Below are positions 51,075 through 61,009 of a stretch of 64,000 bases of DNA, in pieces. A program made the position numbers and the translations under genes. Origin of the DNA: an uncultured bacterium (lineage in GTDB: Bacteria; Bacillota_I; Bacilli_A; RFN20; CAG-826); NCBI GenBank assembly GCA_949290395.1, contig CASERQ010000004.1, positions 85,598 through 149,597 of the forward strand, given 5' to 3'. Numbering within the stretch: the stretch's first letter is position 1; each line of letters opens with the position of its first letter. Under the pieces are notes generated by a model. The model saw nothing but the letters and a program-made list of their open reading frames with translations. It did not search any database and was not told the origin of the DNA.

Positions 51075-51102
51075 AGAGCTAGATTGATTTCTAGCTCTTT
51101 TT
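51075..51102 (+). terminator. Rho-independent terminator after rpoC
   Basis: AGAGCTAG-attgattt-CTAGCTCT hairpin plus TTTT. Confidence 0.8.
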
Positions 51103-51449: not shown

Positions 51450-54400
51450 ATGTTTATGAAGAAAAGAAAAACGATGTTAGCTTGTAGCTTATTATTTGCT
51501 GGCTTAGTTACTACAGGTTTAACAGGATGTAGTCCTGAGGATTTGCCACTCGAAGATGTTGATACTTATAGCATCAAACTCTCTTATGATGAAACAATGG
51601 GTGTTGTTACAGCCGATAAAAAGTCCGGTTTTGTAATTGATGGAGAAACAGTTACTGTTAGTGTTCATGCCAATAGTGGTTATAAAGTAACTGGTGTTTC
51701 AATTAATGGAGAAAGTCAAGATATCACCTATCTTTCTTATACATTCTCTCCAAAAGTTGGCGAAAATGAAGTTATTGTTAACTTTGAAAAAGATGTTAAA
51801 GAAGATGAAGACGATGATGACGTTATTAAAACTTTCAAAATTGTAACTGAATCTGATGCTTATGGATTTGTTTCAACTGATAGAAATAGTGGAAATGTTG
51901 GAGAAACCGTAAACATAAATTATGTTCCTAATAATGGATATGAACTTGCTAAAGTTTTTATTAATGATATTGAACAACCTTTATACATTAATAATTTCAA
52001 ACCAGTTGAAGGTTTAAATACAATTAGAGCTGAATTTAAAGAAGTTGAAGTTAATACTGAAGAAACTTTTACAATTAAGACTGAAACAGATGGTAAAGGC
52101 AAAATTACAGTAGAGAAAGAAGAAGGATATGTTGGCGAAACAGTTCCTTTTAGGGTCTATCCAAAAGCTGGATATCATGTTTCATCCATTGTAATTAATG
52201 GTGTAAGTGTTGGAACAGATACTTATAGTTTTAAACCAATTGGTGGAGAAAATATAATTTCTGTTTTCTTCTCAAATGGTTCTCAAGAAGGTGTTGTTGT
52301 TGAAGAAGTTACAACTTACATTATTCAAACTGCCGACGACGGAAATGGTGAAGTTTACGTTGATAAAACAAGAGGCGATGTTGGAGATACAGTTAATATT
52401 ACTGTTGATCCACACGAAGGTTTTATTTTAGAAAAGATTGTTATTAATGGTATGGATTCTGGTAAGATTACTTCTTTCCAACCAGGACCTGGATTAACTA
52501 GAGTTGATGCTATCTTTAAATCCGAATATACTCCTGATCCAACTGTAAGAACATTTAATGTTGAAGCAACAAGTGGTGAAAACGGAACAGTTGAATTAAG
52601 TGCAACCGAAGGTATTATTGGAACAAGTGTATTTATCTATCCAAAACCAGATAAAGGTTATCAAGTTGCTAAGATTGTTGTAAATGGGATTAATTTCCCA
52701 ACTTATCAAAGAAACTTTGAACCAAAAGAAGGTTTAAATACTGTTGAAGTCTATTTTGAACCAGAAGAAATGGATGAAGATTTCAGTGTAAAAATTACAA
52801 AAGTTGGAGAAGGCGATGTCTTTATTGATAAGACAAAAGGAAAAGCTGGCGAAACAGTTAATTTAACGATTGAACCAGACGCAGAATTTGAAATTTATTC
52901 TATTAAAATTAATGGTGAACTTGTCGACAACTCAACAAGATCATTTGAAACAGTTCCTGGATTAAACGAAATTTATGTCGAATTTATCGTTAAAAACTTT
53001 GAAGAGCATGAATTTACTGGAATTACTCCTGTTGGAAAGAGCGATATAAGAACAAGCGAAGAAGCTGCTGAAATTATCGCTAGTGCATTCGATATTTATC
53101 TCGAAGATAATGAAAATATTACAGTTGATGAATTTAAGACATGGTTAGTCAACGCAGATATTTATAACAATTTTGTTCTTAAATATGGATACACACTTGA
53201 ATCTCTTGAAGCAGGTCTTAACTATATTGTTAATGATGGTCTCTATGATTTAATGTTTGCTCCAACAAATGGTGTAAGTTATGACAACCTCAAATCATTA
53301 GCTAACTATATTTATGATGGTGTTAGCAAATTCAGCCTTGAAGAGTTTGCTGGTTATACAGGTTTATTTACATTCATTGGTGTAATCAACGGATTCAACG
53401 ATCTTGATTTAGATAATCTTTATAATTTAGCACTTCAAAATAGCTTAGATATCGCTCAAGAAAGTATACTTGATGTTGATGCTAAAAACTATGTCAATGA
53501 ACTTATCTACAACTCAACTTTCAATTTAGAGACAAGTTTTGCAGAGTATTTAGTTTATTCCGATGTAGTTTCAGAACTTATCTATAGACCATTTAACGCA
53601 ATTGCAGGCTCTTATACAAAGGATGAAATTTCCGAAGTACTAGCTAAAGGTATTGAATTTGTTAAGAGTTTAAGTGGTGAAGAAACTGACCTTAAGATTA
53701 CCGATCAATTCTATATGGAAATTGCTAACTTAGTTTCTAGAATTTTCGATAAGAATTCATTTAGTAAAGAAAGTTTTGCTAAGATTGGTGAAAAATTAGC
53801 AAATGCTAAAGATCCATTCGAAAGCATTATGAATGTCTTACCATATGCTGAAAATAATAGATACTTTGGAGCATTAAAAGATGCTGCTGTATTATTAAAA
53901 GATAATAGCGAAAGAGCTTATTATTTCTTCAAGACAATTGGAAGATTTGCAACTAAACTTCAACCAAAAGATATTAGCAAGATTGAACTTGCTTTAATTG
54001 AACCAAATACAACTCAAGAAACAAAATATGCAAAAGTATTTGTTTATGTTTCTAGAGTTATTGCTGATGCAATTGATGAATTAAGCTTACAAGGCGATGA
54101 TGTCCGTCACATCTTAGCTTTATCTGGTGATTTTGTTACTAAATTAAAAGAAATTATTCTTTCTGGTAATACAAATGGAGTCATTGAAGCTAATACGATT
54201 GACATCAAGTTACTTATTGATAACATTTATTCAGCTTATACAACAAACCCAGAAAAATTAACTGAAAGCCAAGTTGCAAGTTATTCACAAGCTTATACAA
54301 GATTTATCAACATGTTTAGACCTATTGCTAAAGAAGATGCAGTTTATAACATTGATTTTGATAAATATTATAAAGTTGGTGAAGCTTTAAAACTTACAAT

Positions 54401-54761
54401 TACTGATAAAGATGGAAATGATGTAACAAGTGAAGCAAAAGTTGAAAACTTTGATACATCTAAACTTGGCTATAGAAAAGTAAGAATTGTTTTACCTGAT
54501 GATTCAATCATTTACTATAGTTACTTTGTATCAAAGAGTGGTGAATATATTGAAATTGATACTCAATATTTCTATCTCAATGATGATCCAGATTTAACAT
54601 TTAACGTTCTCGTTCATAATTCTGACAACCCTGCTGGTAGTTACAAGAAGTTCTCAGATTATGAACATGGAACAATTGATACTTCAAAAGAAGGAACTTT
54701 CGCAAGTTGGGTAAAAAATGCGGAAGGTGATTATTATTTCTTTACATATATTGTAGAATAA
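51450..54761 (+). CDS. Large surface lipoprotein with about 7 tandem ~90-aa beta-rich (Ig-like) repeats and a ~560-aa C-terminal alpha-helical domain
   Basis: Signal peptide with lipobox LTGCSPED. Repeating pattern T(F/Y).I.TE.D..G.V.....G.VGETV...V.P..GY.V..I.INGV......Y.F.P..G.N.I...F recurs about 7 times between aa 40 and 610. Confidence 0.65.
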   Translation: MFMKKRKTMLACSLLFAGLVTTGLTGCSPEDLPLEDVDTYSIKLSYDETMGVVTADKKSGFVIDGETVTVSVHANSGYKVTGVSINGESQDITYLSYTFSPKVGENEVIVNFEKDVKEDEDDDDVIKTFKIVTESDAYGFVSTDRNSGNVGETVNINYVPNNGYELAKVFINDIEQPLYINNFKPVEGLNTIRAEFKEVEVNTEETFTIKTETDGKGKITVEKEEGYVGETVPFRVYPKAGYHVSSIVINGVSVGTDTYSFKPIGGENIISVFFSNGSQEGVVVEEVTTYIIQTADDGNGEVYVDKTRGDVGDTVNITVDPHEGFILEKIVINGMDSGKITSFQPGPGLTRVDAIFKSEYTPDPTVRTFNVEATSGENGTVELSATEGIIGTSVFIYPKPDKGYQVAKIVVNGINFPTYQRNFEPKEGLNTVEVYFEPEEMDEDFSVKITKVGEGDVFIDKTKGKAGETVNLTIEPDAEFEIYSIKINGELVDNSTRSFETVPGLNEIYVEFIVKNFEEHEFTGITPVGKSDIRTSEEAAEIIASAFDIYLEDNENITVDEFKTWLVNADIYNNFVLKYGYTLESLEAGLNYIVNDGLYDLMFAPTNGVSYDNLKSLANYIYDGVSKFSLEEFAGYTGLFTFIGVINGFNDLDLDNLYNLALQNSLDIAQESILDVDAKNYVNELIYNSTFNLETSFAEYLVYSDVVSELIYRPFNAIAGSYTKDEISEVLAKGIEFVKSLSGEETDLKITDQFYMEIANLVSRIFDKNSFSKESFAKIGEKLANAKDPFESIMNVLPYAENNRYFGALKDAAVLLKDNSERAYYFFKTIGRFATKLQPKDISKIELALIEPNTTQETKYAKVFVYVSRVIADAIDELSLQGDDVRHILALSGDFVTKLKEIILSGNTNGVIEANTIDIKLLIDNIYSAYTTNPEKLTESQVASYSQAYTRFINMFRPIAKEDAVYNIDFDKYYKVGEALKLTITDKDGNDVTSEAKVENFDTSKLGYRKVRIVLPDDSIIYYSYFVSKSGEYIEIDTQYFYLNDDPDLTFNVLVHNSDNPAGSYKKFSDYEHGTIDTSKEGTFASWVKNAEGDYYFFTYIVE

Positions 54762-54796
54762 ACAAGCATCTGCTTTGAGACCAAGGGGAGGCATTA

Positions 54797-56779
54797 ATGG
54801 GAATTGTACTATTTATAATTTATTTAATTTTGTGTGCGGCAATTTATTGTCTCTTCCTTTTCATATTTCGTGTTAAGTACGCGAGATATTATAAAAAAGA
54901 TATATGTATAGATAGCGATAACGAATCATATGCAGTTTATGAAGTAGAAGATAGACGGAAACCATTTATTAGTGAATATGTAGTTTATACCGCTGATGAT
55001 TACCGTTTTCTCAAAATGGAGATTACAGAAAAGGTTGAATACATAAACATCAATATAATCTGCTATGAAGGCAAAAGAATTAAAAAGATTATCAATTTCT
55101 TAAACGAAGTTGATAGTAAACAAGATCATTACATAATTAAGCTTCCTGATAATATTGATGGAGTTAGATTAAATGTAACTGAATGTAATGGTCAAATATA
55201 TGGAAGTGATGGGGTAGCTAAAAAGAACTACCTTATCCCTGCTATTATATCTTCTGTATTAATGGGCCTTGTAGCCTTTTCTTTGCTTTTTGCATTTAGA
55301 GCATGCATGGTTGATTTCCATAATGATTTCTTTGATTGGGACTATGTCTATAGAGTTATCTATTTTGAACCTTGGATCTATGTAATAGGTGCAGTCTGTG
55401 CCTTAGTTTTTGGAGTTTTAATGTTTTTAATATTATTTATTCCAAATTCTAAAAAATATGAAAAAGCTCAATTTAATAAAATCAAGAAACTTAATATTGA
55501 AAAGGTAATTCGCTTAAAGCTTAAAAAAGTTAAGACTAGACAAGGGAATTTCCTTTTTTACGTTAAGCCAAAATGTAAGAGAAAATATAAGTTAAAAAGC
55601 GCAAAAATTATAGTTCCTTTTTATGATGCTGATGGCAATTTACTTGGAACAAGTAACATCATGATCAAGAAAAGACTCAGAAAATATTTCTTAACATCAA
55701 ATGCCGCTTTTGCAAGTTTTAAACCTGAATACATCGCGGCTGACTTTAAGAAAATTTATTTTAAAAACGGCACTTTTAGAAGGAGAATTTCTAAAAAAGG
55801 CGTTTATACTTCTTTCTTACAACCATATGGCGTCAAAAAAGTTCGTGTCCTTTTTATAGTTGCTTGCTTAGTAACAAGTGCTTATTCAATTTATACATAT
55901 TTCAATTTAACTTCGATTAATACAAGTATGTCTGATTTTGAATTTGTTTATGCTGATGAATCGACAAAAGATGCTTATGCAATCGCAAAATATAATGGTA
56001 AAAGCAGTAAACTTGTAATTCCTGAAAGTTTTAATGATTTGCCAATTGTAAAGGTCAATAGAGGGGCTGTACAAAATAACTTATATGTTGATGAAGTTTA
56101 TTTTAGTGGCGAAATTGAAATTGAACCTTATGCATTTACAAATTCTTATAACATTAAAAAAATCGATTTCACAAACGTTACTATAATCGGGGAACATGCT
56201 TTTAGCGGTTCGAGAATTAGAGAAGTTGTAATTGATCACGAAATAACTATTGAAGATGAAGCTTTTAGAGGAAATCAATTCCTAAGAAAAGTTATCATTA
56301 ACGCTGACGCCGGAGCAACCATTGAATCAAATGCTTTCGGAAGAACTGAAATTGATTATCTTGAAATTCATCCAAATGGAAATTACATTTCTAAAGGTGC
56401 TTTCTTAAATCTTAAAACTGATAAAGGATACATTTTCCAAGGTGCTGGCATTAATTACAGCAACTATATGAGTTATGTTGTAAGCAAGAATGTAAAATGC
56501 CAAAACACTTGTGTTCACGACAACAACTCTTTCTTTGTTGATGAAAGCGGGCATTTACACGAAGATAAGAGCTTCACTGTAAAAGAAACCATTAGAGAAG
56601 CAACATGTGTTAGTAATGGAATTAACGAAGTTACTTGTAATTATTGCGGTTCTATTTATAACGTTGGAATTCCGGCTGATAAAAATAAGCATGATTATGG
56701 TCTAGATGGAAATTGTATACATTGTGGAAGAAGAGATCCAAATTATGTTGAGCCTGTTATTGAAGAGGGGGATGAATAA
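54797..56779 (+). CDS. Polytopic membrane protein with extracytoplasmic BspA-type leucine-rich repeats and a C-terminal Cys-rich module
   Basis: Four hydrophobic TM segments. LRR-like units (IGEHAFSGSRIREVVIDHEITIEDEAFRGNQFLRKVIIN). C-terminal CQNTC...CVSNG...CNYCGS...CIHCG cysteine cluster. Strong RBS GGGGAGG. 1-nt overlap (TAATG) with the next gene. Confidence 0.6.
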   Translation: MGIVLFIIYLILCAAIYCLFLFIFRVKYARYYKKDICIDSDNESYAVYEVEDRRKPFISEYVVYTADDYRFLKMEITEKVEYININIICYEGKRIKKIINFLNEVDSKQDHYIIKLPDNIDGVRLNVTECNGQIYGSDGVAKKNYLIPAIISSVLMGLVAFSLLFAFRACMVDFHNDFFDWDYVYRVIYFEPWIYVIGAVCALVFGVLMFLILFIPNSKKYEKAQFNKIKKLNIEKVIRLKLKKVKTRQGNFLFYVKPKCKRKYKLKSAKIIVPFYDADGNLLGTSNIMIKKRLRKYFLTSNAAFASFKPEYIAADFKKIYFKNGTFRRRISKKGVYTSFLQPYGVKKVRVLFIVACLVTSAYSIYTYFNLTSINTSMSDFEFVYADESTKDAYAIAKYNGKSSKLVIPESFNDLPIVKVNRGAVQNNLYVDEVYFSGEIEIEPYAFTNSYNIKKIDFTNVTIIGEHAFSGSRIREVVIDHEITIEDEAFRGNQFLRKVIINADAGATIESNAFGRTEIDYLEIHPNGNYISKGAFLNLKTDKGYIFQGAGINYSNYMSYVVSKNVKCQNTCVHDNNSFFVDESGHLHEDKSFTVKETIREATCVSNGINEVTCNYCGSIYNVGIPADKNKHDYGLDGNCIHCGRRDPNYVEPVIEEGDE

Positions 56780-58074
56780 TGAATATTAGCTTTACTTCGC
56801 CAATTGTCGTATTTATATTCGCTTTGGTTATATTCTTACTTATTGGTATTATTGCCGTTTTAATTATCGTTAGAGAATACAAAAACACTAACACCGTTTT
56901 AATCAAAGAAAATAGAAGCAAAAGAAGCTTAAATATCGGACAGGAAGCAATCAGAAAAGCCTCAGAAAAAGATCCTACCTCTGTTAACAAGAATTTAGAA
57001 AGATTTGCTGAACTTTTAATCTTAGATAACGAAGCCGAAAAGATTAAATCTGTAACCTATGATAAAGTTAGTGATCTTGAAAAGTTTACAAATGACTTTA
57101 GAAATTATTGTGCTTCTAAAAAAGGTTTGTTCTATACAATTGATGATTTAAGAGCATTCATTTCTAACCTTGCAACAACCAAAATTATGATTCTTCAAGG
57201 TATGTCTGGAACAGGTAAAACTTCCATTGCACTAGCCTTTGAAGATTTTATTGGAAACCAAACGACTGTTATTGCTGTTCAACCTATGTGGAAAGAAAGA
57301 AGTGACTTAATTGGTTACTTTAATGAATTTACGAAAAAGTTTAACGAAACTCCTCTTTTAAAAGAGTTATATCGTTCTAATTTTACAGATCAAATTTTTA
57401 TCATCGTTTTAGATGAGGTCAACATTGCTCGTATTGAGTATTATTTTGCTGAGTTCTTATCTCTTCTTGAATATCCTAACATTAATCAAAGAACTCTTGA
57501 AATTACAAATGACTCTTGGCCAAAAGATCCAAAACTTTTAAAAGATGGTAGACTTCAAATTAAACCTAATGTTTATTTCTTAGGCACTGCAAATAACGAT
57601 GAATCAACATTCTCTATTTCAGATAAAGTTTACGATAGAGCGATGATTTTAAACCTTGATAAAAAGGCTGAAGCTTTTGAGGGTGTACCAACAGAAAGAG
57701 TTAGAATTTCTAATGAAAACTTTGAAGAATTAGTAAAAGCCGCGCAAAACTCATATCAAAATTATGATTCTTTAAATAAAAAGATTGATAAAATCAATGA
57801 ACTTTTAATTGATTCATTTGAAATTAATTTTGGTAACCGTATGGTAAACCAAATGAGACTTTATGTTCCAGTTTATGTTGCTTGTGGTGGAGACGAAGAT
57901 ACTGCATTTGACGATTTTGTATGTAAAAAGATATTAAGAAAATTAGAAGGGAAAGATGCGTTAAAAGTAAATAACGCAATTGACCCATTCATTGAAAAAT
58001 TAAATAACGAGTTTGGAAAAGATAAAATGTTTTTCTCAAAAGAATATTTAACTAAGTTCCAAATTAAAGGATAA
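56779..58074 (+). CDS. Membrane-anchored McrB-family AAA+ GTPase-like protein (single N-terminal TM helix)
   Basis: N-terminal TM (IVVFIFALVIFLLIGIIAVLIIV). P-loop IMILQGMSGTGKTS. McrB-specific VQPMWKERSDLIGYF (compare McrB VQFHQSYSYEDFIQGY). Walker B/NRA motif IFIIVLDEVNIAR. Sensor region VYFLGTANNDESTFSISDKVYDRAMIL. Confidence 0.65.
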   Translation: MNISFTSPIVVFIFALVIFLLIGIIAVLIIVREYKNTNTVLIKENRSKRSLNIGQEAIRKASEKDPTSVNKNLERFAELLILDNEAEKIKSVTYDKVSDLEKFTNDFRNYCASKKGLFYTIDDLRAFISNLATTKIMILQGMSGTGKTSIALAFEDFIGNQTTVIAVQPMWKERSDLIGYFNEFTKKFNETPLLKELYRSNFTDQIFIIVLDEVNIARIEYYFAEFLSLLEYPNINQRTLEITNDSWPKDPKLLKDGRLQIKPNVYFLGTANNDESTFSISDKVYDRAMILNLDKKAEAFEGVPTERVRISNENFEELVKAAQNSYQNYDSLNKKIDKINELLIDSFEINFGNRMVNQMRLYVPVYVACGGDEDTAFDDFVCKKILRKLEGKDALKVNNAIDPFIEKLNNEFGKDKMFFSKEYLTKFQIKG

Positions 58075-58078
58075 GTAA

Positions 58079-59671
58079 ATGGATAGAAGCGGACGTAGAT
58101 ATACTCAATATAAGAATTTTAAAATCTATAGCGACTCGGTTTCAAAAAACGAGAAACTTTTGTCTGCTTACGATAAGATTAAAAGTTCAACAAAGAGCAA
58201 AAACCAACTTAAATCAGTTGTTAATGATATTGTAATCGAAGAAGATTGGGTCAACACAATTGAAGAACTTTTACCTTATGTTTCTAGTGCAATTAATGAA
58301 GAAAGAAGATTCATTAGAAATGAAAGCGAAACTCTTCCAATTGAAAAAACAAGAAGAGTAACTAAAGAATCAATTGTTAATCTTTCAATGAATTCTCAAA
58401 ACATCCGTAAGATTAAAGAAAATGATGAAATCGAACCTTCTAAACTTCTTGTCGTTGAAAAATTAGATGACTACTCAATTTATGAAAATAAATTTTTAGT
58501 CTTCTTACTTAAATTTTTAAAATCTTTTATTGAGATTCGTTTTGAAAAGATTAGAGAAGCTAAATCTTTACTCGAAACAAGAACTAAACTTAATGATAAA
58601 GTTAATCTTTACCGCAATACTATTTCATACAAGTTAGAAATTGTTGACGAAAGATATGGCGATTTAAACCTTGAAGAAAATGACAAAAACTACGATGTAA
58701 TAAGAAAAATCAGAAACATCGAGGTTCAAATTAATCATCTTTTAAAAACAGATCTTATTGAACAAGTTAGTAAAACGCCTCCAATCAGGCAGCCAATTCA
58801 AAGAACTAACTTACTTAAAAATGATATTAACTTTTCTAAATGTCTTAAGCTTTATGACTTCATAAGTAGTTATGCAAAACCAGGTTATACCATTACACCT
58901 GTTGAAACCTTAAAAGAAGAACTTTCTCAAGATTATTTAGACTATTTCTCTAAGATTCCAACTCTTGTTGCATTCTTATCGTATGCTGAAACAAAAGGTG
59001 TTTATGAACTTTACGCAAAAGAATTTGAAATTGAAAAAGAAGAAAATAGAGTAGCTGAGCTTGTTGAAATTAATCGTAAAATTTATGAAATGCTTGGCAC
59101 TAAAGAAGTAGATTTTAAACTTGTTTATGAGTTTGTTATTGGGATGCAAGAAGAAAGAATTCGTCTTAATAAAACCATAGAAGAACTTAAAGTTAATCAC
59201 GAAAAAGAAATCGAAGAACTTAAGACTGCTTTTGAAAATGAGAAGAACGAAATCTTTGATAAGCATCGTGAAGAAGTTAATAAGTTAAATGAAGATATTT
59301 CTAACTTAGAGAAAGAAAACGCTGCAAAACTGGACTTAATTAATAAAAATTTTGATGATTATCGTTTAGATGCAGAAAAGAAAATTAAAGATTTATCTGA
59401 TCAAAACGAGGAACTTACGAGTCGTTTGACGGTCGCTCAAATCACAAATGGAAAAGCCAAATTTAATGAAAACATTACCGAAAAAGAGTTCGACGAACTT
59501 GAAAGACAAAAATTTGCTTTTGATAAGTATTTTGAGAAAACTTGGAAAAGACTTAAAAAAGAAATTATGAAGAATCGTAAAGCTGAAGCAATTAATGAAG
59601 TTAAAAATGCAAGAGCTAAAAAGAAAGAGAAGAAAGGAGTAGAAAGTGAACAAGAACAGGAAGTTAAATAA
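58079..59671 (+). CDS. Coiled-coil protein (possible divergent McrC-like partner or adaptor; no clear nuclease motif)
   Basis: 530 aa. N-terminal ~300 aa globular region, then a ~200-aa heptad-rich, Glu/Lys-rich coiled coil (ELKVNHEKEIEELKTAFENEKNEIFDKHREEVNKLNEDISNLEKENAAKLDL...). 4-bp gap from the upstream gene, and the downstream gene overlaps it by 26 bp. Confidence 0.5.
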   Translation: MDRSGRRYTQYKNFKIYSDSVSKNEKLLSAYDKIKSSTKSKNQLKSVVNDIVIEEDWVNTIEELLPYVSSAINEERRFIRNESETLPIEKTRRVTKESIVNLSMNSQNIRKIKENDEIEPSKLLVVEKLDDYSIYENKFLVFLLKFLKSFIEIRFEKIREAKSLLETRTKLNDKVNLYRNTISYKLEIVDERYGDLNLEENDKNYDVIRKIRNIEVQINHLLKTDLIEQVSKTPPIRQPIQRTNLLKNDINFSKCLKLYDFISSYAKPGYTITPVETLKEELSQDYLDYFSKIPTLVAFLSYAETKGVYELYAKEFEIEKEENRVAELVEINRKIYEMLGTKEVDFKLVYEFVIGMQEERIRLNKTIEELKVNHEKEIEELKTAFENEKNEIFDKHREEVNKLNEDISNLEKENAAKLDLINKNFDDYRLDAEKKIKDLSDQNEELTSRLTVAQITNGKAKFNENITEKEFDELERQKFAFDKYFEKTWKRLKKEIMKNRKAEAINEVKNARAKKKEKKGVESEQEQEVK

Positions 59672-61004
59672 ACTTATTTTGATTTTGTGTGCTATAGAAC
59701 TTTGTCTTATTCTATTCTTTTTAGGCTACTTACTTGTTTATAGTGCTGTTATTGGTGATGATAGCTTAATTACATCTCCAGCTTTATATATGGCAGCAAT
59801 CTTTATTTCTATTACTCCTATTGGAATGCTTATTTATTACTTTGGAATAAGAAATAGAAAAATTACTATTTTTAAATTTGAAGTTGATGAACAAAAAGAA
59901 ACCAATAAGAGTAAAAAAGTCATTAAAGACGAAAAAAGAAAAAGATTTAGTGAACTTTTAAAAATTGATGATGCAACTGAGGAAGTTGATTTTGATGATG
60001 TTTTTGATTTAAAAGTATTTACTGAACAATTTAGAAATTTCTGTGCATCTAAAAAGAAACTTTATTATACAGAAGATGATGTTCGCTCATTTATTACAAA
60101 CTTGTTAACTAGTAAAATCATGATTCTTCAAGGTATGTCTGGAACTGGTAAAACTTCAATCGCATTAGCTTTTGAAGATTTTGTTGGGAACCCAACAACT
60201 GTTATTCCAGTTCAACCTGCATGGAAAGAAAGAAGTGATTTAATTGGCTACTTCAATGAATTCACTAAAAAGTTTAATGAAACTCCATTGCTTAAAGAAC
60301 TTTATCGTTCCAACTACTCTGACAAAATATTCATTATTGTTTTAGACGAAATGAATATTGCTCGTGTCGAATATTATTTTGCTGAATTTTTATCTTTACT
60401 TGAATATCCAAATGAAGATCAAAGAACAATTGAAGTCACTAATGATTCATGGCCAAAAGATCCTCGTTTAATTAAAGAAGGAAGAATGCAAATTAAGCGA
60501 AATGTCTATTTTTTAGGGACAGCAAATAACGATGAATCTACTTTCTCAATCTCTGATAAAGTTTATGATCGTAGTATGATTTTAAACTTAAATAACAAAG
60601 CAACTAGCTTTGAAGCAGAAGAACAAGGAAGAGTTAAAATTTCTAATGAAAATTTTGAAAACCTTGCAAAAGAGGCATTAAATTCTTATAAAAACTACGA
60701 TGGTTTAAGAAAAAAGATTAATGCAATTAACGATATTTTAGTTGAACACTTCATGATAACTTTTGGTAATCGTATGGTTAACCAAATGTTAAGTTATGTT
60801 CCTATATATGTTGCGTGTGGTGGAGATGAAGATGAAGCTTTTGATGACTTTGTTTCTAAGAAGATTTTAAGAAAACTTGATGGCAAAGACGTCTTTAAGG
60901 TTTCTAGTGCTCTCCCTTCTTTCCTTGATTCGCTCAACCATGAATTTGGTCGCGATAAAATGGTAAAATGTAAGAAGTATCTTAAGAAATTTGAAATCAG
61001 GTAA
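59646..61004 (+). CDS. Membrane-anchored McrB-family AAA+ GTPase-like paralog (two N-terminal TM helices)
   Basis: GTG start 7 nt after AAAGGAG. Two TM helices. Core from aa ~125 to the C-terminus is about 80-85% identical to 56779..58074 (IMILQGMSGTGKTSIALAFEDF, VQPAWKERSDLIGYF, IFIIVLDEMNIAR, VYFLGTANNDESTFSISDKVYDRSMIL). Confidence 0.65.
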   Translation: MNKNRKLNKLILILCAIELCLILFFLGYLLVYSAVIGDDSLITSPALYMAAIFISITPIGMLIYYFGIRNRKITIFKFEVDEQKETNKSKKVIKDEKRKRFSELLKIDDATEEVDFDDVFDLKVFTEQFRNFCASKKKLYYTEDDVRSFITNLLTSKIMILQGMSGTGKTSIALAFEDFVGNPTTVIPVQPAWKERSDLIGYFNEFTKKFNETPLLKELYRSNYSDKIFIIVLDEMNIARVEYYFAEFLSLLEYPNEDQRTIEVTNDSWPKDPRLIKEGRMQIKRNVYFLGTANNDESTFSISDKVYDRSMILNLNNKATSFEAEEQGRVKISNENFENLAKEALNSYKNYDGLRKKINAINDILVEHFMITFGNRMVNQMLSYVPIYVACGGDEDEAFDDFVSKKILRKLDGKDVFKVSSALPSFLDSLNHEFGRDKMVKCKKYLKKFEIR

Positions 61005-61009
61005 AAGTT

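Follow-up and report, generated by a model that had tools for sequence, protein, structure and literature searches.

The 64,000-nucleotide stretch analysed here (contig CASERQ010000004.1 of assembly GCA_949290395.1, positions 85,598 to 149,597), which we call the window, is chromosomal DNA of an uncultured bacterium of the Bacilli_A lineage, with a G+C content of about 30%, and carries rpoB and rpoC as well as an L10 leader. Three open reading frames (ORFs) on its forward strand are the subject of this report. The first, A1 (56779 to 58074), encodes a predicted McrB-type AAA+ nucleoside triphosphatase (NTPase) of 431 amino acids (aa). The second, M (58079 to 59671), encodes a 530-aa protein that we interpret as an McrC homologue without a nuclease, and the third, A2 (59646 to 61004), encodes a 452-aa paralog of A1. 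A2 begins with a GTG codon at 59646, an AAAGGAG Shine-Dalgarno sequence lies just ahead of it, and the gene overlaps the 3' end of M by 26 nucleotides; the start codon of A1 shares the sequence TAATG with the stop codon of an upstream gene for a 660-aa protein. A gene for a giant surface protein, G1, follows A2.

Both ATPases matched the Pfam family AAA_5, with expectation values (E) of 1e-8 and 1e-7; an NCBIfam scan gave no meaningful matches. When a single sequence was used as query, E. coli McrB was the best relative of solved structure (E 2e-3). A 31-member family profile searched against the PDB returned McrB as the sole significant AAA+ match (E 8e-6 to 1.5e-5), with no match to MoxR, RavA or CbbQ at E ≤ 1. 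A preliminary description of this DNA, made from the sequence, had placed both proteins in the McrB family on the strength of several motif parallels, and these were reproduced in HMMER alignments: the P-loop, VQP.WKERSDLIGY with VQFHQSYSYEDFIQGY, LDE(V/M)N with IDEIN, and GTANNDES with GLMNTADRS. The Walker A motif GMSGTGKT (57199 to 57222 in A1, 60132 to 60155 in A2) and the Walker B motif (I/V)LDE(V/M)N (VLDEVN at 57406 to 57423, VLDEMN at 60339 to 60356) are present in both proteins and invariant or nearly so across 31 homologues, as is the arginine of DKVYDR (57622 to 57639 in A1). The same applies to N272, D274 and the flanking GTANND(E/D)STF, which align with the NTAD of E. coli McrB; the GTANNDEST segment lies at 57583 to 57609 in A1 and 60516 to 60542 in A2. 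The N-N-D-E of A1 and A2 is the variant of the McrB signature in which NxD is followed by E or D, and this variant defines a major, unusual branch of McrBC systems, to which both CoCoNuT and CoCoPALM belong (Bell et al. 2024, PMC11090510). Judged by these matches and motifs, both proteins are AAA+ NTPases of the McrB type in which the Walker A, Walker B and NxD(E) elements are all intact.

In the AlphaFold model of A2 (predicted local distance difference test score, pLDDT, 82), two helices at the N-terminus are followed by a linker modelled with low confidence and by an AAA+ fold of clade 7. The modelled fold agrees with McrB but by itself does not discriminate among AAA+ proteins. An AAA+ chaperone of the MoxR type that has been mislabelled as McrB-like would share several of these features, inasmuch as AAA_5 is a Pfam family common to MoxR-like proteins, NorQ, CbbQ and a MoxR-like ATPase were among the Foldseek matches of the A2 model, and MoxR operons that include transglutaminase-like membrane proteins are known. 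We nevertheless consider this alternative very improbable. The family profile matched only McrB in the PDB, the partner gene encodes a DUF2357/McrC homologue rather than a VWA or DUF58 protein, and no AAA_3, VWA or DUF58 match was found in the cassette; MoxR with a VWA partner, which the preliminary description had named as a competing assignment, was thus looked for and not found. Moreover, the NxD signature sets McrB-like GTPases apart from other AAA+ proteins (PMC11090510).

Hydrophobicity analysis identified strongly hydrophobic 19-residue segments at the N-termini of both ATPases, one in A1 and two in A2, consistent with a single transmembrane (TM) helix at about residues 8 to 31 of A1 and with two TM helices at about residues 10 to 33 and 45 to 66 of A2. 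In A1 an uncharged stretch of 7 residues precedes the helix and REYKNTN...KENRSKRS follows it. A2 begins with MNKNRKLNK, followed by the first helix, an acidic 14-residue loop, the second helix and RNRKITIFK, an arrangement that suggests an N-in, loop-out, C-in topology. Because the flanking charges obey the positive-inside rule, the AAA+ domains of both proteins are predicted to be cytoplasmic and tethered to the membrane. Domain searches and the A2 model revealed no N-terminal nucleic-acid reader domain on either protein, only the TM helices and a short linker, in agreement with what had been proposed from the sequence. The juxtamembrane linker in the A2 model is only about 60 to 70 residues long and in part has a pLDDT below 50. 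It contains an RF(A/S)xL motif about 25 residues ahead of the N-terminal helix of the AAA+ domain (the RFxxL of A1 at 57001 to 57018, RFSELL of A2 at 59943 to 59960), which does not vary among the 31 ATPases aligned, those of the signal-peptidase-type relatives described below included.

M had no Pfam, NCBIfam, PADLOC or PDB-sequence match of its own. Its homologues at 19 to 33% identity carry PF09823 (DUF2357), the N-terminal domain of McrC, which was matched in 11 of 18 members of the M family (best E 5e-11). The AlphaFold model of residues 1 to 305 (58079 to 58993; pLDDT 85), the DUF2357-like N-domain, comprises a helical bundle and a long beta-hairpin stalk at residues 164 to 193 (14 + 14 residues); a Foldseek search with this model gave no match. 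The remainder of the protein, residues 306 to 530 (about 225 residues), is proline-free and 43 to 53% charged, and its profile matches only coiled-coil proteins. We assign a charged, helical, coiled-coil-like region to about residues 306 to 470, and a conserved motif close to the C-terminus, FDELExxKxAFDxYFxKxWKxxKKxI, is encoded at 59489 to 59578 (FDELERQKFAFDKYFEKTWKRLKKEI in the window). Against the PDB, a profile of full-length M found only generic coiled-coil proteins and a profile of the N-domain alone found no match. A home-made heptad score was no better for M than for shuffled sequence, as composition alone scores high; we apply the label coiled coil because of the absence of proline, the high charge, the profile matches and the coiled-coil Pfam matches of homologues.

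No Pfam, NCBIfam or PADLOC nuclease match was obtained for M, and no nuclease domain was found in any of 10 longer M homologues. The sequence LDDYSIYENK had been considered as a PD-(D/E)xK site of atypical spacing (D131...E136-x-K138). We reject this candidate, which lies in the DUF2357 region and in which K138 alternates with arginine among homologues; it contains the invariant Y135-E136-N137 (58481 to 58489), the YEN signature of the DUF2357 domain. M had been described as a coiled-coil protein in a cassette devoid of McrC. The absence of the nuclease stands, whereas the absence of McrC does not: M is an McrC homologue in which the DUF2357 half has been kept and a charged helical extension occupies the place where the nuclease would be. 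An ordinary McrBC system would carry a nuclease on the McrC homologue and DNA-binding domains at the N-termini of the ATPases, and domain searches found neither. The family of the M N-domain is large, with 2305 clusters at 50% identity for E ≤ 1e-3 and 1015 for E ≤ 1e-30, and we found no names for its proteins in public sources.

Gene neighbourhoods were compiled from contigs encoding M homologues, from a scan of 185,579 species genomes and from an ORF and hidden Markov model census of 90 loci, designated L followed by a number. The scan yielded 349 confirmed relatives among species genomes. The gene triplet of the window recurs in them. An ATPase gene lies directly upstream of M at 55 of 56 evaluable loci and directly downstream at 48 of 55, across several classes; the latter count is a lower bound, as the ORF filter passed over an overlapping two-TM ATPase gene in L061. 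Proteins of at least 590 aa are encoded within three genes downstream in most cases (at least one at 42 of 47 loci, at least two at 34 of 47), and all those inspected open with an N-terminal TM segment. We conclude that these genes make up a conserved cassette, with the A1-M-A2 triad as its invariant core and with G1 and a second giant, G2, as the other constant members. The hosts include uncultured 'Mollicutes'/Bacilli (77% identity), Ca. Onthovivens, Christensenellaceae and other Clostridia, Anaeroplasma, Izemoplasmataceae and Haloplasmataceae. The relative L001 (GCA_949286765.1; 65% identity) carries the cassette in its entirety between rpoC and the rpsL-rpsG-fusA genes of the str operon. 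Two cultured mouse-gut isolates also carry the system, Anaerocaecibacter muris CLA-AA-M11 (L061, NZ_CALPCE010000001.1) and Pumilibacter intestinalis CLA-AA-M10 (L074).

The conservation of the pair bears on the age of A1 and A2. The preliminary description had estimated their cores to be 80 to 85% identical in protein and about 85% in DNA, and had taken this as a sign of recent duplication and a substrate for recombination. These figures proved too high. The segments 57085 to 58074 and 60018 to 61004 encode protein sequences that are 75.1% identical, and the whole proteins are 64% identical. At the DNA level the identity of the segments is 73.2%, with no exact run longer than 26 nucleotides. 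Among the top 120 homologues, 54 have one TM helix (about 430 aa) and about 61 have two (about 456 aa). In a tree of the cores, A1 groups with the one-TM orthologues of related genomes (78 to 80% identity) and not with A2 (74.6%). For some distant genomes the one-TM and two-TM cores of the same genome are closest to each other, with both architectures conserved (contigs c25770, c14759 and c17036; pairs P0127/P0111, P0136/P0135 and P0138/P0117), which hints at occasional or episodic gene conversion between the paralogs there. A recent, recombination-prone tandem duplication, a lineage-specific accident, would be in keeping with this clustering and with the presence of paralogous genes 1.6 kb apart in direct orientation. 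The low DNA identity and short exact run, the flanking of M by a one-TM/two-TM pair at the 48 of 55 loci noted above, and the grouping of A1 with its one-TM orthologues make such an accident hardly credible. The duplication is old, and the one-TM/two-TM pair a conserved feature of the family.

A further ATPase paralog is encoded upstream at 32 of 50 loci. This third paralog, of about 1100 aa, has an N-terminal ectodomain with Glyco_hydro_3_C and Fn3-like domains and three to four TM helices, and its C-terminal domain aligns over its full length with the ATPase core. Walker A, Walker B and the NxD signature are missing in 27 of 27 cases (for example L065, 4986 to 8327, and L061, 5188 to 8382, and 25 other loci). 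Because Walker A and NxD are absent throughout, we refer to it as a pseudo-ATPase, and its architecture looks like that of a receptor-like subunit. It is common to most relatives and absent from the lineage of the window, in which the 660-aa multi-TM protein upstream of A1 takes its place. The cassette of Anaerocaecibacter muris is complete, with pseudo-ATPase, one-TM ATPase, M, two-TM ATPase, G1 with intact Cys and His, and G2.

Homologues of G1 and G2 follow the triad at 52 to 54 loci. The two giants are paralogous to each other and combine transglutaminase-fold with adhesin-repeat domains (Transglut_core, AgI_II_C2, MBG and YDG). G1 of the window (61010 to 64000, forward strand) runs past the end of the window; the part encoded here is anchored by a TM segment at its N-terminus and contains two Transglut_core domains. 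In the first core the catalytic Cys is replaced by Ala (GNAENFA, 62396 to 62416). The second has no Cys and has Tyr in place of His (YFWNE, 63485 to 63499). In G2 of L001 the Cys is replaced by Ser, and both Cys and His are kept in relatives from Ca. Onthovivens, Anaerocaecibacter and Oscillospiraceae. As the transglutaminase cores in the lineage of the window appear to be dead, the conserved role of the giants is probably structural or adhesive rather than catalytic. A cytoplasmic peptide of about 25 residues (M..Y..Y..KI.K......RFR) precedes the TM helix of G2 and is conserved from Mollicutes-like Bacilli to Clostridia (for example L001, 16055 to 19801, L013, L054, and L061, 16876 to 20757). 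This peptide is a likely candidate for a site at which a motor docks.

The most distant M homologues (L004 to L007, L009 and L010) occur in a different type of locus. There, a single ATPase (about 510 aa), whose TM helix lies near residue 60 to 70 and whose linker is longer, is found together with an M protein of 700 to 860 aa, and the pair is flanked by two mutually homologous paralogs resembling S26/S24 signal peptidases (Peptidase_S26, E 2.4e-5; Peptidase_S24, E 2.7e-4). These loci (for example L004, 5035 to 15271; L009, 69 to 8276; L010, 3931 to 10627) also contain runs of paralogous proteins of about 200 to 320 aa with an N-terminal TM segment, two of which are weakly pilin-like below threshold (Pilin_N, E 0.036; TadE, E 0.3). 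A protein of more than 2481 aa is encoded, among loci of this type, in L004 to L007 only. No homologue of the peptidases was found by phmmer at E ≤ 0.01 in about 80 loci of the transglutaminase type or in the 64-kb window.

These observations can be compared with CoCoPALM, a clade of McrBC systems with a TM-anchored, NxD-motif GTPase that has been named in one paragraph and is otherwise uncharacterised (Bell et al. 2024, eLife 13:RP94800, PMC11090510). Its reported features are an FtsB-like TM segment and coiled coil on the GTPase, and association with genes of the signal peptidase family involved in pilus assembly (PMC11090510). The configuration seen in the window, initially thought to be undescribed, has to be set against this clade, which was already named and not described (PMC11090510). 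Literature searches combining McrB with transglutaminase, membrane or signal peptidase yielded nothing beyond Bell et al., neither subtype being described further; no follow-up on CoCoPALM was found in the literature library searched. The window resembles CoCoPALM in its NxD GTPases with N-terminal TM helices, in the coiled coils on the McrC homologue and in an apparently non-restriction, envelope-associated character, and distant homologues of its M and ATPases sit in the loci with signal-peptidase paralogs. It differs in that the cassette lacks signal peptidase and pilin-like genes, in that two GTPase paralogs, both active by their motifs, flank the McrC homologue, in that most relatives add a pseudo-ATPase paralog with a GH3_C/Fn3 ectodomain, and in that the constant partners are two giant surface proteins with transglutaminase folds. 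Moreover, no coiled-coil or FtsB-like segment was detected in the short, low-confidence linker of the window GTPases, and neither they nor the signal-peptidase-type relatives gave a DivIC/FtsB Pfam match.

One could suppose that the window encodes a true CoCoPALM pilus-assembly system (Bell et al. 2024), with the peptidase-like assembly factor and the pilins encoded elsewhere in the genome. The shared NxD motif, TM-anchored GTPase and coiled coil on the McrC homologue would fit this supposition, as would the position of the distant M and ATPase relatives between two S26/S24-like paralogs followed by small proteins with N-terminal TM segments. The absence of peptidase homologues from the transglutaminase-type loci, the lack of an FtsB-like match for the window ATPases, and a gene content of two or three ATPase paralogs with G1 and G2 instead of peptidase and pilins make it unlikely. 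We distinguish two subtypes in the family, a signal-peptidase subtype that matches the description of CoCoPALM and a transglutaminase-giant subtype to which the window belongs.

Comparison with solved McrBC complexes from E. coli and Thermococcus (PDB 6hz4, 6ut6 and 6ut5) indicates a common engine. The AAA+ core, Walker A, Walker B and the Asn/Asp signature are shared, as is an adjoining partner with a DUF2357 domain made of a helical bundle and a stalk. In contrast to those systems, the ATPases of the window have TM helices and no N-terminal DNA-binding domain and carry NxD rather than NxxD. Two GTPase paralogs are present, the McrC homologue has no PD-(D/E)xK nuclease, and the genes lie in a core chromosomal context with surface proteins. 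CoCoNuT systems (CnuB/CnuC) share the NxD(E/D) motif and coiled coils on the McrC homologue, and in some CoCoNuT types the McrC nuclease has been lost or inactivated (PMC11090510). The window differs from them in that its cassette genes encode neither a nuclease, of the HEPN or any other kind, nor a helicase, nor a CSD or further RNA-binding module, and in that the GTPase is membrane-anchored, not fused to a coiled coil. The cassette is best filed as a variant that falls on the NxD/CoCoPALM side of the McrBC family and not as something categorically new.

Our preferred reading, to which we assign a probability of about 0.6, is that A1-M-A2 is a nuclease-free, membrane-anchored McrBC derivative of the NxD branch that acts as a GTPase motor serving giant surface proteins rather than in restriction. 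In solved McrBC complexes, that of E. coli included, the DUF2357 domain plugs the McrB hexamer with its stalk and activates the hydrolysis of GTP (summarised in PMC11090510). By analogy, A1 and A2 would assemble into a hetero-hexameric ring at the inner surface of the membrane, a ring that in other lineages would also contain the receptor-like pseudo-ATPase paralog, and the stalk of M would insert into it and switch on GTP hydrolysis. The energy would be passed to envelope proteins, not to nucleic acid, through the TM helices (up to nine or more per ring), the rod of M or both. The work delivered might be the export, assembly, anchoring or mechanical control of envelope proteins, with the N-terminal peptide of G2 as the likely docking site.

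Several points weigh against this reading. M of the window itself scores below the Pfam threshold for DUF2357, and neither its sequence nor its profile matches McrC in the PDB by sequence. Foldseek placed McrB third for the A2 model, among MCM, NorQ, CbbQ and dynein. Both transglutaminase cores of G1 in the window appear to be catalytically dead, such that the role of the giants here would not be transamidation. The functional tie to the giants is deduced from conserved adjacency, and the family is known from sequence, models and gene context. Finally, the McrBC ancestry and a match to a PADLOC candidate defence system leave room for a role in defence.

Such a role would be that of a membrane-tethered, McrBC-like sensor or motor acting against phages or plasmids by abortive infection, for example through membrane perturbation, with the surface proteins as unrelated cargo or as decoys of phage receptors. 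McrBC is a Type IV restriction system, and the NxD branch, as represented by CoCoNuT, has been interpreted as defence (PMC11090510). The ATPase core also matched PADLOC PDC-M26A strongly (E 1e-44 to 1e-48), over about positions 250 to 434 of the 724-position profile. This match is limited to the ATPase core, however: no second PDC-M26 component was matched, M matched no PADLOC model, and we found no literature on PDC-M26. In the cassette, domain searches and the locus census identified no nuclease, no DNA- or RNA-binding domain and no methyltransferase gene or other gene for defence. The strict linkage to homologous giant, adhesin-like proteins extends across Clostridia, Bacilli and Mollicutes-like lineages, and the surroundings are core genes (rpoC and rpsL in L001, directly after rpoC in the window) rather than a defence island or mobile element. 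On balance we regard defence as improbable, to about the same degree as a pilus-assembly system of the CoCoPALM kind.

The region between rpoC and A1 in the window contains two further forward-strand genes. The first (51450 to 54761) encodes a 1103-aa putative lipoprotein with an LTGC lipobox and InlB B-repeat (Flg_new_2) domains and is restricted to the close lineage of the window (8 loci). The second (54797 to 56779) encodes the 660-aa multi-TM protein, which has a BspA-type leucine-rich-repeat (LRR_5) domain and is kept upstream of A1 within the lineage. A terminator-like hairpin lies 3' of rpoC at 51075 to 51098, and no intergenic terminator-like site was found across 51450 to 61400. Because the genes are tightly packed and no intergenic terminator follows the hairpin after rpoC, the six genes from 51450 onward look like one operon, in which the lipoprotein gene would be first. 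The 660-aa protein is weakly homologous to small proteins with three to four TM helices, or to larger ones, encoded upstream of the cassette in other lineages (232 aa in L053, 695 aa in L080, 1540 aa in L039 and 1736 aa in L061), and may represent an accessory component of the membrane that has been fused or reshuffled.

In the gliding of Mycoplasma mobile, a cytoplasmic F1-like ATPase motor is coupled to the giant, N-terminally anchored proteins Gli349 and Gli521. There as here, in wall-less or low-GC Bacillota, an NTPase ring in the cytoplasm or at the membrane face would be encoded with giant membrane-anchored surface proteins, but the two systems share no homology, the motor here is McrB-type and not F1-type, and there is no sign of motility. 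A possible extension of our preferred reading, which we put forward tentatively, is a trans-envelope machine derived from a restriction-enzyme motor. Its hetero-oligomeric, membrane-embedded ring of McrB GTPases would be built from the two active paralogs, to which most lineages would add the receptor-like pseudo-ATPase with its glycoside-hydrolase-like ectodomain, and would be gated by a nuclease-less McrC 'plug' with a coiled-coil lever. GTP hydrolysis would then export, tension or move the two giants by way of the conserved cytoplasmic tail of G2, and the cassette would represent a surface-protein motor of a new class in gut Bacillota, with a function analogous to that of the gliding motor of Mycoplasma mobile.

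Among restriction motors, McrBC is the textbook example of one driven by GTP. The cassette described here is predicted to place the same engine, a McrB ring with its McrC activator, on the membrane beside giant surface proteins and free of any nucleic-acid module, and it is spread over hundreds of mostly uncultured species of gut Bacillota. In such genomes, a match to AAA_5 or a 'McrB-like' match should not lead to annotation as a restriction system. Because two cultured mouse-gut isolates carry the system, experiments are feasible. If the proposed coupling to the giants is true, the cassette would be a clear case of exaptation of a defence motor for a housekeeping function of the envelope, and would provide a first hypothesis for more than 2000 unannotated protein clusters. 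With the full cassette present in the cultured Anaerocaecibacter muris, it would also offer a tractable model for the mechanics of the McrB/McrC engine without DNA.

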